DNA from: a virus
Strand: one strand, 5' to 3'
Length of the DNA stretch: 64,000 nt
IMG/VR virus record: IMGVR_UViG_3300028840_005911
Coordinates: 64,001-128,000 of that record
The translations under genes and the position numbers were made by a program. Below are positions 8,815 to 35,353 of the stretch, piece by piece (position 1 is the first letter of the stretch; every line of letters begins with the position of its first letter). The notes under the pieces are model-generated. The model ran no database searches and had not been told where the DNA came from. It was given only the letters and a program-made list of their open reading frames with translations.

Positions 8815-9358
8815 CGCCTATCTCCATTGTGGCCTTTACCACGTAACTGATATCCCTGTATTCTGCCTCGACGTAGGGAGCCCCACACAGAAGAAGTGTC
8901 TCTGGGGGAAGGAACCCCACGATCTCGACCGGTACCCCGAAGATGGTCTCAACCCCTTCAGATGCCGGTAGCCCTTTACCCTCTAGATCCAGCCACATGT
9001 CCAATACGGGGGTCGAGGTCGTATAACCGGTGACAAAGCATAGAGGTAGTAGCTTCTTCGCGTGGACGAGCTGCATCATGTCGAACAGAACCTCCGGCGG
9101 GCTCGGCTCGCTGTTCAGGTACTCATCCACGTAGGCATTGTTCATGGCCGCTTCGAGGTCCAGATCGCCTTCCTCGCAGTACGTCAGAGGGGCCATCCGG
9201 TACGCAAAGACCGGCTTCCCGAGCTCGATGACGATCTTGTGGATAGCTCCGCCGTCGATGATGTTCCTGACGAGCTCGACTATCCCGTCCTTCGTGGAAG
9301 GAAGATTGTAGTCCTCCCTGACCAGCTTGACCCGGTCCTCATCAAATCTGTTCGACAT
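8663..9358 (-). CDS. hypothetical phage protein
   Basis: ORF track; AGGGAG SD; C-terminus overlaps next gene. Confidence 0.65.
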   Translation of the reverse strand: MSNRFDEDRVKLVREDYNLPSTKDGIVELVRNIIDGGAIHKIVIELGKPVFAYRMAPLTYCEEGDLDLEAAMNNAYVDEYLNSEPSPPEVLFDMMQLVHAKKLLPLCFVTGYTTSTPVLDMWLDLEGKGLPASEGVETIFGVPVEIVGFLPPETLLLCGAPYVEAEYRDISYVVKATMEIGDGRNQADSEADAGIGSDPEGRSQPDDRVEAAPGGGVGSGWVPQGLVGQRP

Positions 9359-15857: not shown

Positions 15858-15885
15858 CTTATAGCAAAAACCCGGTCCGTTTTCG
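15858..15885 (-). promoter_or_regulatory. phage promoter motif upstream of recA
   Basis: Minus strand GAAAAC-N15-TATAAGGAATATGA. Confidence 0.55.
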
Positions 15886-17495: not shown

Positions 17496-17574
17496 AACTA
17501 TGAACAGAAGGGCAGTGCAGCAAAACCGGGAAGGTAGGGCGCTGCAAAAGGTTACGCACCCAAAGGAGGATCAA

Positions 17575-18393
17575 ATGAAAGACTTCAGAGTGAAGGTGAG
17601 AGCCTACAATAATAGGTTGCTCGAGAGGCGGGAAAAGTTAGGACTATCTCAAAAGGCCTTGGCAGCGCAGGCTGGGATACCTGCCGGAGAGTACAACAAG
17701 TACGAGAATATGCGGAAGACGGCGTGGAACCCAAAAAAGAATAACTGGAGGCCGGATGCGGTTAAACTGGCTGCATTCCATGATGTATCCGAGTTCGATC
17801 TATTTCCCGAATCTCTCAAGATGATCGAAGCGCGTCCTGTGGAGATGGAGGTAGATGCCTGCGAGGTAGAGGCCTTGATGGGAGCCTCCATACCAACCCC
17901 ACATAAAGCTCTCGAATCTTCCGACCTGAACACAAAGGTCAGAGAAGTCATCTCTACACTCACCCCAAGAGAAGAAAAGGTAATCAGGGCACATTTCGGG
18001 ATAGGAGAGGATGAGCGGACATTTGAGGAGATCGGTGAAGAATTCGGTGTTGGCAGAAACAGAATACGTCAGATAGAGTGCAAAGCCCTTCGTAAACTAC
18101 GTCACCCACACCGGGCTAAACGTCTGATAGATTACTGTGAAGAAGGACCAGCGCCAAAGCCCAAAGAACCAAAACCTAGACCTCCTACTCCAAAAGAGCT
18201 GGCTCTAGAAAAGTTTCACGCATACGGACACAAAGAACGTAGTATGGGGTGGGCCTATCACTTCCGCTTCAGAAACTTCTATTTTCTGAAGTGCCGAACG
18301 TGCGGACGCAGGGCTTATGCAAAACGGAGAAATGGAAGGATGATGATCTTTGGGGAAGCCCTCAACGTCAAATGTGGTAAGTACCTTCCGTAA
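17575..18393 (+). CDS. XRE-HTH plus sigma70 region-4 HTH protein
   Basis: RREKLGLSQKALAAQAGI (XRE); LTPREEKVIRAHFGIG..RTFEEIGEEFGVGRNRIRQIECKALRKLRHP (sigma r4). Confidence 0.82.
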   Translation: MKDFRVKVRAYNNRLLERREKLGLSQKALAAQAGIPAGEYNKYENMRKTAWNPKKNNWRPDAVKLAAFHDVSEFDLFPESLKMIEARPVEMEVDACEVEALMGASIPTPHKALESSDLNTKVREVISTLTPREEKVIRAHFGIGEDERTFEEIGEEFGVGRNRIRQIECKALRKLRHPHRAKRLIDYCEEGPAPKPKEPKPRPPTPKELALEKFHAYGHKERSMGWAYHFRFRNFYFLKCRTCGRRAYAKRRNGRMMIFGEALNVKCGKYLP

Positions 18394-18395
18394 TC

Positions 18396-18490
18396 GGTGG
18401 ATAGCTTGAGAGTTTGTTGGTGGGTCGATTGGACTAGCGAACGGTTAGATGCTGGTTCGCTGGGAAGAGAGCCTTGTGCTCTCTTTTACC
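18396..18490 (+). ncRNA. (GNNN)n array A plus terminator hairpin
   Basis: G at 8/8 positions 18396-18424, then 11/13 at 18419-18467 after a 1-nt phase slip; hairpin GAAGAGAGC/GCTCTCTT. Confidence 0.65.
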
Positions 18491-19435: not shown

Positions 19436-20692
19436 ATGAACATCGATCTCAACATGTTCGAGAAGGACGAGAAGACGGGACTCTACATCATCGAGGACCA
19501 GGTAGTCCTCGGTATCATCCTGGTCTACGTCATCCAGAAGCTCGGACAGTGCAACGACAACCTGCTGCGGGATACCCTCCGTGACAAACTGGGCATCTAC
19601 GTACGCAAGTGGAAGACCGTCTTCCGCAACGCCCTCAACGCTCTCAAGAAGCTGGACCTCATCGCCATCAACCAGCTCCCCGGAGAGGGGGACGTACAGG
19701 AAGAGCACTACTCCCTGAAGAACGTGGAGTTCGCCTCCCCGCCGCATCTGGCCCACTTCAAGGACGTTCTTCCCAAACTGCTTGCAGACGGGACGTCCGC
19801 AGCTATCAAGGTGGCTTTCGACTCCGGGGAAGAAGCGGAGCCAGGGGAGACCACCAAGCCCAAGAGGGGAGCAAACATCAAAGAGAGCCACGTCTACTCA
19901 GTCCGGTTCGAGAGTGAGGAGAAGTTCCTTGCTGGTAGGTCAATCTGTCCGACCATGAGGGACGGCCTGGAGAAATCTCCGTACCAACCGAACATCGATG
20001 GCTATATCAAGCAGGAAGAAGAAGAGCCCAGGAAGACCAAGAAAAAGAAGGCGGCCGATAGGGCAGACGCTAAGATCGACCGCTTCTTCGAGCGAGCCAC
20101 TGACGGCGGGATCCTGATCCACGGTGGTATCACCAAGGGCATGTTCTGCTCTGCCATACCGCGCTTGTACGGCCTCGCCCCGGCAACCGCGAGGGACAAC
20201 GGCGGGTACCCGTCGATCATCGTCTACCCGAACAATCACGGTATCCAACTGACCACACTTCCGGTCCAGGCCTCCAACGGCAAGTCAGCCGCACCGCAAA
20301 CCTACGAGACAATCATGCCTGGAGAGGAGATCCTGCTCAGGTTCTGGGCCCCGACCAAAGGGTTCCTGGACGCGGACATCATCGTTGAGTATCTCGAGTT
20401 CATCGGCCTCTTCCCAAAACGCACCCTTTCGCCCGGTCGTGGCACCGAGACTGGGAAGATGAGGATGACTCACTTCGTTGACCATGGCCTTGTTCCGGAG
20501 ATATTCGAGAAGCGCAAGAAGAACAGGAAGAAGCTTCCCATAGATGCATACCTCGACTGGGAGTTCGAAAAGGAGACCGGGGTAACGCTCCAAAAAGTCG
20601 GCGGTGCCCCGAAGACTAAGAAGGCCCGCATGCGGGTCGACGGCAACAAGATGCTCCTCTTCAAGACGAAGGGAGACCAGGCTCAGGCGTAG
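19436..20692 (+). CDS. stand-alone Cas7/RAMP-superfamily protein with N-terminal winged-helix domain
   Basis: RAMP-order motifs: VYSVRFESEEKFLAG; FFERATDGGILIHGGITKGMFCSA; TLPVQASNGKSAAPQTYETIMPGEEILLRF; Gly loop LSPGRGTETGKMRM; residues about 20-95 wHTH-like. Confidence 0.72.
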   Translation: MNIDLNMFEKDEKTGLYIIEDQVVLGIILVYVIQKLGQCNDNLLRDTLRDKLGIYVRKWKTVFRNALNALKKLDLIAINQLPGEGDVQEEHYSLKNVEFASPPHLAHFKDVLPKLLADGTSAAIKVAFDSGEEAEPGETTKPKRGANIKESHVYSVRFESEEKFLAGRSICPTMRDGLEKSPYQPNIDGYIKQEEEEPRKTKKKKAADRADAKIDRFFERATDGGILIHGGITKGMFCSAIPRLYGLAPATARDNGGYPSIIVYPNNHGIQLTTLPVQASNGKSAAPQTYETIMPGEEILLRFWAPTKGFLDADIIVEYLEFIGLFPKRTLSPGRGTETGKMRMTHFVDHGLVPEIFEKRKKNRKKLPIDAYLDWEFEKETGVTLQKVGGAPKTKKARMRVDGNKMLLFKTKGDQAQA

Positions 20693-23776: not shown

Positions 23777-23930
23777 GAATACCCTAACGGAGCTCATGGA
23801 TGTTGTCGAGAAGGACAGCAAGAAGATCCTCACGATGGATACCATCAACGGGGTCCGCAAGCTCCGGACATATCTCGTCGGCGGACATTACACGCCGTTT
23901 CTTGGCATAAAAGATCGAACAGGCCAGTAG
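23730..23930 (+). CDS. hypothetical phage protein
   Basis: ORF track. Confidence 0.55.
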   Translation: MSEKEAKKRELLNRAENTLTELMDVVEKDSKKILTMDTINGVRKLRTYLVGGHYTPFLGIKDRTGQ

Positions 23931-24001
23931 CTCAATTGGTAGAGCACCCGCAATCTGAAACATGCGGGAGGTTTGGGGTTCAAGTCCTTGCTGGCCTACC
24001 A
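23921..24001 (+). tRNA. atypical tRNA-Phe(GAA)-like gene with extended anticodon arm
   Basis: AGGCCAG/CTGGCCT-A-CCA acceptor, canonical D arm, CCCGCAAT-CTGAAAC-ATGCGGG anticodon arm (22 nt instead of 17), G-U-rich T stem with TTCAAGT. Confidence 0.68.
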
Positions 24002-24402: not shown

Positions 24403-24642
24403 ATGAAATGCCAAAGATGTGAAAGCGAGAGGATCCTGAAATTCTCCGGGAAGACCTCTGACCTCTTTTCCTGCTACTACATGGGCAAAGAGCACCAAGG
24501 GTATGTGCCGAAAGGCATCGGTATCAACGATAAGTACAGGGACTATCTACAAGGACGTCTGTGCATGGAGTGCGGACAAGTCCAAGGAGAATTCCCCGTA
24601 CCCGGGCCAGACATCGAAGACGATGAAGAAGAGGAGTTGTAA
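24403..24642 (+). CDS. small Zn-finger protein
   Basis: MKCQRCES...LCMECGQVQG. Confidence 0.65.
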   Translation: MKCQRCESERILKFSGKTSDLFSCYYMGKEHQGYVPKGIGINDKYRDYLQGRLCMECGQVQGEFPVPGPDIEDDEEEEL

Positions 24643-24643
24643 C

Positions 24644-25027
24644 ATGTTCGAAGAGCTGACCTTCAAGAAAGAGGAAGTCCTCAATAGGCTGAAGATCAAT
24701 CGCGAGGAGCATCTGAAGATCGTACGCGAAGCCCAGGAGGGTTACCGGGAGCAGTACGAGAAGCTCCTGGTCAAGACCCTCGATGATCTCCGGTCCGGGA
24801 AAGAGGTTCCTAACCACGTAGGTCTGACAGTCCCGTCGAACCACGTGGATGATTATGACCGTGCTATCGAGATGCTCGAGATGTGCACCGAGAAAGAGAT
24901 CATCCTCGACGAGAACCAGTTCCAGGAGCTCATGCGTAACAAGTGGAACTGGATGAGCGGGTTCCTGGTCAGCAACGCTGGTTACAGCGCCACTGCCCAC
25001 AACATCACCACGACAGCCGACGTGTAA
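24644..25027 (+). CDS. hypothetical helical phage protein
   Basis: GAGGAG SD; HVDDYDRAIEMLEM motif. Confidence 0.7.
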   Translation: MFEELTFKKEEVLNRLKINREEHLKIVREAQEGYREQYEKLLVKTLDDLRSGKEVPNHVGLTVPSNHVDDYDRAIEMLEMCTEKEIILDENQFQELMRNKWNWMSGFLVSNAGYSATAHNITTTADV

Positions 25028-25052
25028 AATACTGAAATCATTCGGTTATAAG
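25025..25052 (+). promoter_or_regulatory. phage promoter motif driving an ncRNA
   Basis: TAAAAT-N16-TATAAG with no ORF before the next terminator. Confidence 0.75.
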
Positions 25053-25059
25053 AACTTCG

Positions 25060-25268
25060 AGGAGAAGTTTACACACCTGGTCCCCTCACTCCCCTCCGAG
25101 GGGACCAAACTCCTACACCTTGGGCCTGCCGGCAGGTATCCCTCCCCCTCCTGCCGGCAGGCCCCTTCAAAAACTGGATGTTAGGTGGAACTGCCGTGCG
25201 CATGTCCGGGAGTCCGTAGGAATGGGTAGGTGAGGTAAGAAGGGGAGCCCTGTTCCTCTTCTTTTAGC
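25060..25268 (+). ncRNA. ncRNA: two hairpins with C-rich loops, (GNNN)n array I, terminator
   Basis: TGGTCCCCTC/GAGGGGACCA and GGGCCTGCCGGCAG/CTGCCGGCAGGCCC stems; G at 13/15 in-phase positions 25176-25232. Confidence 0.72.
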
Positions 25269-25338
25269 CCATGAATTCTAAGGTCTTCTTGCGGTATAAG
25301 GATACTGAGGAAGAACCTTAGCACCACAGGAGGAAGCC

Positions 25339-25683
25339 ATGAAATATCTTGAGAGAGCGGCGATAAGCCTGCAATCTGTTCTACACAAAGGGAGCACCGA
25401 TCTCGAGAAGATCGGCATCTTGCTGGCCAACATCCATACCATCATCGATCTGTGGATCCCCATCGGCCGGGCTGTTCAGATCATGGGTCGGGAGCGTTCG
25501 GCCCCGGTTCTGCGCTCGAGGGCCGAGAAGCTCATCAGGGATATCCGTAGAGAGGACGAGGATGCCGTCAGAGAGGATATCTCGGTCATAGAGGACATAG
25601 TATACCAGTACACCGGAAAACGTCCCGTAGGGGGCAAGGAGTACGCTAGCAGGGAGACTATCCAGTTTGTCGACGCCCCCTGA
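25339..25683 (+). CDS. hypothetical phage protein
   Basis: Promoter TGAATT-N17-TATAAG at 25272-25300; GGAGG SD. Confidence 0.65.
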   Translation: MKYLERAAISLQSVLHKGSTDLEKIGILLANIHTIIDLWIPIGRAVQIMGRERSAPVLRSRAEKLIRDIRREDEDAVREDISVIEDIVYQYTGKRPVGGKEYASRETIQFVDAP

Positions 25684-26900: not shown

Positions 26901-27068
26901 GATAGATTGAATGAGTTACTGATAGTTTGCGAGGGAGTTGGGAAGGACGGAGTCTGGAAAGCAGTGAGGAAAGGGCGGAAGGTTGTTCGATCTCACGAGG
27001 GATAGGCAGCCAGTGGGCCTGTGGGGAGGAGCGAACGGAAAAGAGACTGATCTGGTCTCTTTTCTTAC
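26901..27068 (+). ncRNA. (GNNN)n array B plus terminator hairpin
   Basis: G at 31/35 in-phase positions 26901-27037; off-phase G 28/105; hairpin GAAAAGAGAC/GTCTCTTTTC-TTAC. Confidence 0.8.
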
Positions 27069-34361: not shown

Positions 34362-34547
34362 TCACTCCTCCCTCGCCGCGCGTTCTATACGCAGGCAGAT
34401 ATCGCAACACTCGTTTTCGGGCGGCCTGTCTCCATCAATCATTGCAGTTTTGGGAGCATGGATGAATCGACCACATACTGTGCGACTATTGCACATGCCT
34501 TTTAGGTGCCATTTTGTTCTGCGTCCATTTGCTTTGGTCCATTCCAT
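34362..34547 (-). CDS. small Cys-rich cassette gene
   Basis: Ends RAAREE in the repeat. Confidence 0.55.
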   Translation of the reverse strand: MEWTKANGRRTKWHLKGMCNSRTVCGRFIHAPKTAMIDGDRPPENECCDICLRIERAAREE

Positions 34548-34775
34548 TTAACTCCCCTCCCTCGCCGCTCGATACTTGTTGCGGCACTCGGTGCATCCAT
34601 TTTTCTGCAGATGCCACTCGGTAATCGGGACATCAATATCCCATGAGACGATCTTGTTGCACAATGACATGGTGTCTGCGCCACCACCAAGCCTACGGCC
34701 ACGATCCGTTAGCGGTCTGATATGCCACACGCCGCCAGGCATTGCTACTGATGTCTCGCAGAAAGAATATTCCAT
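34548..34775 (-). CDS. small Cys-rich cassette gene
   Basis: Ends RAAREGS in the repeat. Confidence 0.6.
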   Translation of the reverse strand: MEYSFCETSVAMPGGVWHIRPLTDRGRRLGGGADTMSLCNKIVSWDIDVPITEWHLQKNGCTECRNKYRAAREGS

Positions 34776-34776
34776 C

Positions 34777-34974
34777 TCACTCCTCCCTCGCCGCGCGTTT
34801 GGCTACCATGTTCCAGGCGTCAACAGCTACGGTTTTTCTGTCATCAGATGGGCCGCGAGCACCACAATCAATCGGGTTGCCACACACCACATACCATTCA
34901 TAGTCAAAGCTGTTCTGGTCAACGTCGGCCGGGTTTCCACAGTATGGACACGGTGCTGGTTTCTGGTCGCTCAC
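34777..34974 (-). CDS. Lar-like restriction-alleviation Zn-ribbon protein
   Basis: KPAPCPYCG...VVCG..CGARGP...AVDAWN; GTG start. Confidence 0.6.
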   Translation of the reverse strand: MSDQKPAPCPYCGNPADVDQNSFDYEWYVVCGNPIDCGARGPSDDRKTVAVDAWNMVAKRAAREE

Positions 34975-35150
34975 TTCCCTACCTCCCTCGCCGCGTCTGG
35001 ACCGTCGAGTACTTTGCATAGATAAACTTCAGTCCAGTGCTGCCGAATGCTCTCGTGTAAAGCCTTCGCCATATCGTAATCATCATGCGGGTACACCTGT
35101 GGCTGACAGGTGCTGTCTCCGATGAATACAATCAGGTACTTGATGTTCAT
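34971..35150 (-). CDS. small cassette gene (59 aa, below ORF-track cutoff)
   Basis: MNIKYLIVFIGD...DAAREVGK read by hand. Confidence 0.55.
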   Translation of the reverse strand: MNIKYLIVFIGDSTCQPQVYPHDDYDMAKALHESIRQHWTEVYLCKVLDGPDAAREVGK

Positions 35151-35353
35151 GTTGTCTTCCCCTCCCTCGCCGCGCGTTTGGCAAAAGACAGCGCTTCATC
35201 GAGTGTTCTTATCCCGGCATCATGCATCTCGCGTAACTGCGGAGCAGCCGAACCAAACGGAAAGCATGTGGCGCTCCACAGCAAATCGTTCTTCTCTTGT
35301 TGGGTCAAGTGCGGAAAATATTTGTCCAGAGAATCTTGGCACTCTTTACACAT
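35147..35353 (-). CDS. small cassette gene
   Basis: Ends RAAREGKTT. Confidence 0.55.
   Translation of the reverse strand: MCKECQDSLDKYFPHLTQQEKNDLLWSATCFPFGSAAPQLREMHDAGIRTLDEALSFAKRAAREGKTT

Follow-up and report, generated by a model that had tools for sequence, protein, structure and literature searches.

The question raised by this locus is whether the gap at positions 25028-25338, between two genes of an uncultured phage, encodes an RNA of its own, and if so which kind. A sequence-only reading had proposed a dedicated transcription unit in the gap, in which two GC-rich hairpins with C-rich loops are followed by an array of four-base units beginning with G (GNNN). The window analysed is a stretch of 64,000 nt, corresponding to bases 64001-128000 of a complete virus record of 192,446 bp with direct terminal repeats. 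The phage contig originates from sediment and seawater metagenomes. The contigs in the two DNA data sets that carry the phage were identical, leaving 0 variants for covariation analysis.

The candidate unit (25060-25268) is non-coding, is about 205-210 nt long and is flanked by ORFs on the + strand. Searches for relatives of the flanking proteins in IMG/VR and among cultured phages gave just 26-39% identical matches, or none. The DNA of the region had no match when compared with phages, and hairpin 1, used as an exact pattern, had no match elsewhere. Further upstream lies a tRNA-like gene (23921-23998, +) that scored 50.8 bits against the Rfam tRNA model, was not called by ARAGORN and has an anticodon loop of 12 nt instead of 7. 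A weak promoter-like site is located just 5' of this gene, at 23905, and the gene was matched in other contigs of the same metagenomes with small loop deletions.

The features considered below are as follows (window coordinates, strand, description).

19436-20692, +, winged-helix (wHTH)-Cas7-like (RAMP) protein that presumably partners the GNNN RNAs
24503-25027, +, upstream ORF; its stop codon, 25025-25027, is overlapped by the GTAAAAT element of P1
25024-25052, +, promoter P1: GTAAAAT at 25024-25030 and TATAAG at 25047-25052, with a probable start near 25059-25061
25060-25077, +, 5' leader GAGGAGAAG-TTTACACACC, by alignment of the type of the mRNA leaders behind other phage promoters
25078-25107, +, hairpin 1: perfect 10-bp GC stem, 10-nt loop ACUCCCCUCC (25088-25097), = ACTCCCCTCC
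25122-25164, +, hairpin 2: perfect 15-bp GC stem, 13-nt loop UAUCCCUCCCCCU (25137-25149), = TATCCCTCCCCCT
25165-25175, +, linker CUUCAAAAACU, single-stranded in the predicted folds
25176-25235, +, GNNN tract: 15 units, 13 with G first, with a 12-unit core at 25176-25223
25237-25269, +, terminator: stem AAGAAGGGGAGC / GTTCCTCTTCTT (25237-25248 / 25252-25263), then TTAGCC
25273-25302, +, promoter P2: GAATTCT ... GGTATAAGGA, strong (44.7 bits by position weight matrix), the 3' limit of the unit
25339-25683, +, downstream ORF, driven by P2

Boundaries of the unit

A scan for generic sigma-70 promoter and terminator consensus sequences returned nothing in this gap, because the phage uses motifs of its own. 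Its specific promoter consensus, GTAAAAT-N16/17-GGTATAAGAA followed by a purine-rich start, is present in about 25 copies on both strands, mostly within 16-58 kb of the window. In its fuller form, GTAAAAT-N16/17-GGTATAAGAA-nnGTGARGARGAA, it has a CTTA(A/C)C leader behind it. When scored with a leave-one-out weight matrix, P1 reached 23.0 bits and ranked 26 genome-wide, with a background of 20 bits or less and a range of 27-51 bits for the 21 training promoters. P1 is a real but weak copy of the phage promoter, the weakest of its class. Elsewhere in the window, the promoter also occurs as back-to-back pairs, at 15864/15886 and 50725/50749, and a sigma-factor-like phage gene (phrog_351) is located at 17500-18393.

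The terminator likewise belongs to a type that recurs in this phage, with a purine-rich 5' arm, a 3' arm of CTCTTCTT and then TAC or TTAGCC, and which is also found behind other arrays. No terminator was found between the stop codon of the upstream gene and the hairpins; both hairpins lack a U run, so that transcripts of this gene would also carry the unit as their 3' UTR. The proposal of a dedicated transcription unit was therefore borne out for the promoter and terminator, both of which match the phage consensus, but no terminator sets the unit apart from the upstream gene, and its promoter is the poorest match of its kind. The accompanying statement that no ORF lies between promoter and terminator applies to credible ORFs; a 37-codon frame with a TTG start (25120-25233) is open, but it has no Shine–Dalgarno (SD) sequence and starts inside the 15-bp stem of hairpin 2.

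The 5' hairpin domain and its C-rich loops

Both GC-rich hairpins were found where the sequence-only reading had placed them, with a loop of 13 nt, rather than 14 nt, in hairpin 2. The predicted fold of the 5' domain has an energy of -59.3 kcal/mol compared to -36.7 kcal/mol for shuffled sequences (z = -6.3), and 0 of 200 shuffles were as good. For the whole unit, the corresponding z was -4.2 on the + strand versus -1.7 on the - strand. In the fold, AGGAG at 25060-64 pairs with CUCCU at 25110-14, forming a closing helix round hairpin 1. In the ensemble, the unpaired probability exceeds 99% for both loops and is 0.999 for that of hairpin 1.

No other long GC hairpin with a comparable C-rich loop was found in the 192 kb, and no consistent 5' boundary hairpin precedes the other tracts of the phage. 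A structured 5' head is likewise predicted, with z = -4.1, for the only other GNNN unit driven by a promoter (30796-31187). Hairpins with C-rich loops were absent from the related L002/L003 loci described below, indicating that the head is not conserved across the system but particular to the unit at 25060-25268.

The resemblance to known C-rich-loop small RNAs (sRNAs) was assessed using Rfam. The best structured matches were both below threshold, namely Scr3202 (RF02833) at 28.0 versus 52 bits and ar14 (RF02344) at 20.8 versus 58.8 bits, and 6C (RF01066) gave no match at E <= 10. The previously suggested likeness accordingly stands at the level of design, with two-hairpin C-rich-loop sRNAs as the nearest models, but does not extend to membership of these families. 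Stable hairpins with C-rich loops are common to the unit, the actinobacterial 6C RNAs (6C/B11 of M. tuberculosis), Scr3202 and the ar14/'cuckoo' sRNAs, and the architecture of Scr3202 aligns with the unit across both hairpins. The unit differs from all three in being phage-encoded and in carrying a 3' GNNN tract, which those sRNAs lack. The C-rich loops of 6C pair with the G-rich ribosome-binding regions of mRNAs without a chaperone (PMC6486639).

The loops had also been read as complementary to SD sequences. Across about 250 crudely defined start regions, loop duplexes with phage translation start regions had energies of -9.8/-10.1 kcal/mol versus -6.9/-7.2 kcal/mol for coding controls, a stronger pairing with start regions. 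However, any C-rich loop will prefer SD sequences and rank the most G-rich of them first, so this complementarity is trivial in itself. A single perfect 10-mer complement of loop 1, at 34560 (-), was considered as a target and rejected as within chance, about 0.4 such sites being expected per genome. The best predicted targets are five tandem small genes at 34362-35353 (-), with duplexes of -15 to -22 kcal/mol. These genes encode 59-75 aa and have in common just a C-terminal RAARE motif; their conserved junction GCGGCGAGGGAGG(G) encodes RAARE and doubles as the ribosome-binding site for the gene that follows. Among the five is a Lar-like gene (restriction alleviation, phrog_599). An anti-SD function of the loops is plausible by analogy alone.

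Each arm of hairpin 2 was also found to hold a self-complementary 12-mer, CCTGCCGGCAGG (25125-25136 and 25150-25161), of which there is no other copy in the genome. The arms are thus self-complementary over 12 of their 15 nt, for which the chance is about 4^-6. This property is needless for an RNA hairpin and is not explained by RNA folding; it therefore forms the basis of a minor alternative at the DNA level, considered below.

The GNNN tract and the Cas7-like protein

A genome-wide scan for G at every fourth position detected five very strong arrays, with scores of 17-36, at 26901, 29610, 30563, 30909 and 32035, and weaker stretches, with scores of 8-10, at 18396/18419 and 31997. All of these lie on the + strand, cluster at 18.4-32.2 kb and share with the tract at 25176-25235 the same non-coding layout with a phage-type terminator. 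The arrays at 26901, 29610, 30563 and 31997 begin right after stop codons, making them 3'-UTR arrays. No other base or period behaved in this way anywhere in the genome. The units of this phage have a single conserved G, with near-uniform composition at positions 2-4. A palindrome, CAACAG-N3/4-CTGTTG, occurs in five copies in the same region (30132-30149, 30543-30558, 30748-30763, 31197-31212 and ~32243), several of them between the two promoter elements or right before a GNNN tract, and resembles the operator of a phage repressor.

The tract of the present unit is as had been described, with 13 of 15 units beginning with G. In the crude period-4 scan it was detected as 12 of 13 units with a score of 10, a level at which shuffled genomes give 1.8 equally good loci per genome. 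Using a unit PSSM trained on the other arrays alone, it scored 17.3 bits and was the top locus outside the six to seven known arrays on both strands of the 192 kb; no other such locus reached 15.3 bits and two reached 13.3 bits. Shuffled genomes are expected to contain 0.35 loci at this PSSM score, with ~32% of them holding at least one, and local shuffles of the tract's own 69-nt stretch reached the score in 0.04% of trials. Taken alone, the tract is marginal and not significant genome-wide without its context. Its position in the array cluster, on the right strand, in non-coding DNA and 1 base before a terminator lowers the chance probability to about 0.005-0.015.

The 1-nt gap between the end of the tract at 25235 and the start of the terminator stem at 25237 is the same as at the 26901 array. 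An in-phase GAAT-G is present at 25220-25224, at the end of the 12-unit core, with three further units before the terminator. Three or four other arrays have the motif, and GAAY-G closes the arrays at 26901, 29610 and 30563, with GAAY making up only 5-6% of units. This motif resembles the CAGAAC-hairpin handle of the L002 arrays, although the purine-rich terminator arms may inflate it. Position 4 of the tract's units is richer in C than it is in the large arrays, and in the ensemble the tract is just 36% unpaired. When targets of all eight tracts were sought in the phage's own genome under rules skipping 0, 1 or 2 bases, nothing was found above shuffled controls, and two 7-unit 1-skip patterns of the tract at 25176-25235 had no match in IMG/VR.

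The presumed partner of these RNAs is the protein encoded at 19436-20692. Its AF2 model has a mean pLDDT of 83.8, and Foldseek matched the C-terminal 230 residues to Csm3/Cas7 chains with E 1.7e-6 and TM 0.5-0.6 (normalised to target length). As modelled, the protein adopts a Cas7/Csm3 fold. A weak likeness to PadR was seen at its N-terminus, and no sequence match to solved structures was obtained at E < 0.01. A total of 88 homologues were identified. Searches of viral contigs with the RAMP protein alone or as an alignment gave no match, and neither did those of genome contigs.

The neighbourhoods of these homologues were then compared. L002 and L003 are near-identical metagenome contigs with a GC content of 63% and a RAMP homologue of 37% identity, directly 3' of which are six period-4 G tracts (L002:3209-4082, L003:4220-5090). 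At the end of every tract stand (U)CAGAAC, a conserved 10-13-bp hairpin with compensatory changes in its stem, and GAUUCU; the layout of tract and handle is CRISPR-like (repeat/handle). In L005, an AT-rich IMG/VR phage, a distant RAMP homologue is followed at 8841-9201 by two period-5 arrays of 21-24 pentamers of the form U-NNN-G, a relaxed five-base code unlike GGY-NN. The RAMP homologue of L004 (IMGVR_UViG_3300025536_000012) has no periodic array within 8 kb, and the 137-kb record contains no 12-unit GNNN run. The period-4 tracts of L002/L003 and the period-5 arrays of L005 tie the protein family to periodic RNAs and to VIPR.

VIPR systems, which are likewise encoded by phages, combine a RAMP protein, Vipr, with a vrRNA composed of 9-16 GGY-NN pentamers and a structured 3' tail, and the pentanucleotide motif is present in all seven VIPR types (bioRxiv 10.64898/2026.04.26.720920, 10.64898/2026.04.26.720927). 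As in VIPR, this phage encodes a lone Cas7-like RAMP protein together with periodic short-unit non-coding RNAs, in which one or more conserved G positions alternate with hypervariable bases and the 3' end has a structured cap; the length of the present tract, 12-15 units, is similar to that of vrRNAs. Its step, however, is four bases (G + NNN) rather than five (GGY + NN, or YNNGG in tandem), and thus the repeat that defines VIPR is absent here. Further differences are the N-terminal winged-helix domain of the protein, the dispersal of the RNAs over 14 kb as transcript tails where VIPR arrays adjoin the gene, and the large 5' hairpin head, which has not been described for vrRNAs. Compared with the crRNA/Cas7 filaments of Class 1 CRISPR (Csm3/Cmr4), the fold of the protein is the same and periodic protein binding along a single-stranded guide would be a further likeness, but CRISPR repeats, further cas genes and a 6-nt period are all lacking, and unlike a crRNA the unit carries its own promoter and terminator.

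A proposed bipartite RNA and its alternatives

The reading that we favour, with confidence that is about even, is that of a bipartite phage RNA whose 3' half is a short, four-base-step member of a VIPR-like set and whose 5' half resembles the C-rich-loop sRNAs. Because its short tail resembles six longer neighbouring tracts, the unit at 25060-25268 probably serves as a minor RNA partner for the lone Cas7-like protein of this phage. An RNA of ~205-210 nt would be made from a weak promoter of early/middle type, probably also by read-through from the upstream gene, and would end at the phage-type intrinsic terminator. In its 3' half, 12-15 GNNN units would run directly into the terminator hairpin as a short member of the G-every-fourth RNA set. 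We infer that the wHTH-Cas7-like protein, whose gene lies 4.4 kb upstream, would coat this tract as Vipr coats vrRNAs, but with a four-base step. The 5' half would form a rigid head, in which the closing helix and the two very stable hairpins keep CCCUCC-type loops single-stranded. One role considered for this domain is that of a stable 5' cap or boundary of the protein-RNA filament; a structured head is likewise present in the second stand-alone GNNN unit. The head may also act, compatibly with this, as a seed that, like the loops of the 6C-type sRNAs, needs no chaperone to pair with G-rich ribosome-binding sites.

Among the alternatives, the one to which we give some weight, while considering it unlikely, is that there is no independent gene and that the unit is mainly the 3' UTR of 24503-25027, with the hairpins as stability or processing barriers, the tract as a 3'-UTR array and P1 vestigial or minor. 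The absence of a terminator after the stop codon, hairpins without a U run, the four arrays located directly behind stop codons and the mere 23 bits of P1 are all in keeping with this view. Against it, P1 is clearly above background and is accompanied by the usual purine-rich start and leader; moreover, a 3' UTR would alter only the origin of the RNA's 5' end and not its nature. It is also rather unlikely that the unit is a plain C-rich-loop regulatory sRNA, the loops of which recognise G-rich ribosome-binding sites in phage or host mRNAs, with the GNNN pattern being a coincidence in a G-rich spacer. In its favour, 0.35-1.8 tracts as good are expected genome-wide by chance, the hairpins share the design of 6C, Scr3202 and ar14 (PMC6486639), the loops are accessible and the best predicted targets are the five genes with the GCGGCGAGGGAGG(G) junction. 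The rank of the tract as the top non-array locus, its strand, its place within the array cluster and its abutment on the terminator argue against coincidence, at the context-adjusted probability given above.

Two further readings have a much smaller claim. Hairpin 2 could function as DNA, its two 12-bp palindromes, 25 bp apart, being sites for a dimeric DNA-binding protein and forming a roadblock, or else an operator, between P1 and P2. The self-complementarity of the arms, unneeded by an RNA hairpin, favours this. However, CCTGCCGGCAGG is absent from the rest of the genome and therefore defines no regulon, folding of the + strand is far better than that of shuffles, and the C-rich loops and hairpin 1 would be left without explanation, which makes this reading distinctly improbable. 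That the frame at 25120-25233 encodes a small protein is scarcely credible: it is open, but its TTG start lacks a properly spaced SD and is buried in the GC stem, and the frame extends across both the hairpin and the tract.

A bolder extension of the bipartite reading, which we regard as improbable, is that the RNA is a chimeric guide, the GNNN tail of which would load the wHTH-Cas7-like filament while the anti-SD loops anchor the ribonucleoprotein to G-rich ribosome-binding sites, or act as decoys for them. If true, this would couple a VIPR-like four-base-step machine to translation control, an arrangement undescribed for CRISPR, VIPR or sRNAs.

If RNAs with a four-base step truly partner the Cas7-like protein, VIPR (2026) would grow beyond its five-base code into a family of codes, the types seen among the homologues being G-NNN, U-NNN-G and GGY-NN. 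The unit at 25060-25268 would then be the smallest self-contained example, comprising a promoter, structured head, tract of 12-15 units and terminator of its own, and would therefore be the handiest construct for studying loading, unit length and targeting rules. Its C-rich-loop head would in addition represent a rare phage-borne analogue of the 6C-type sRNAs.
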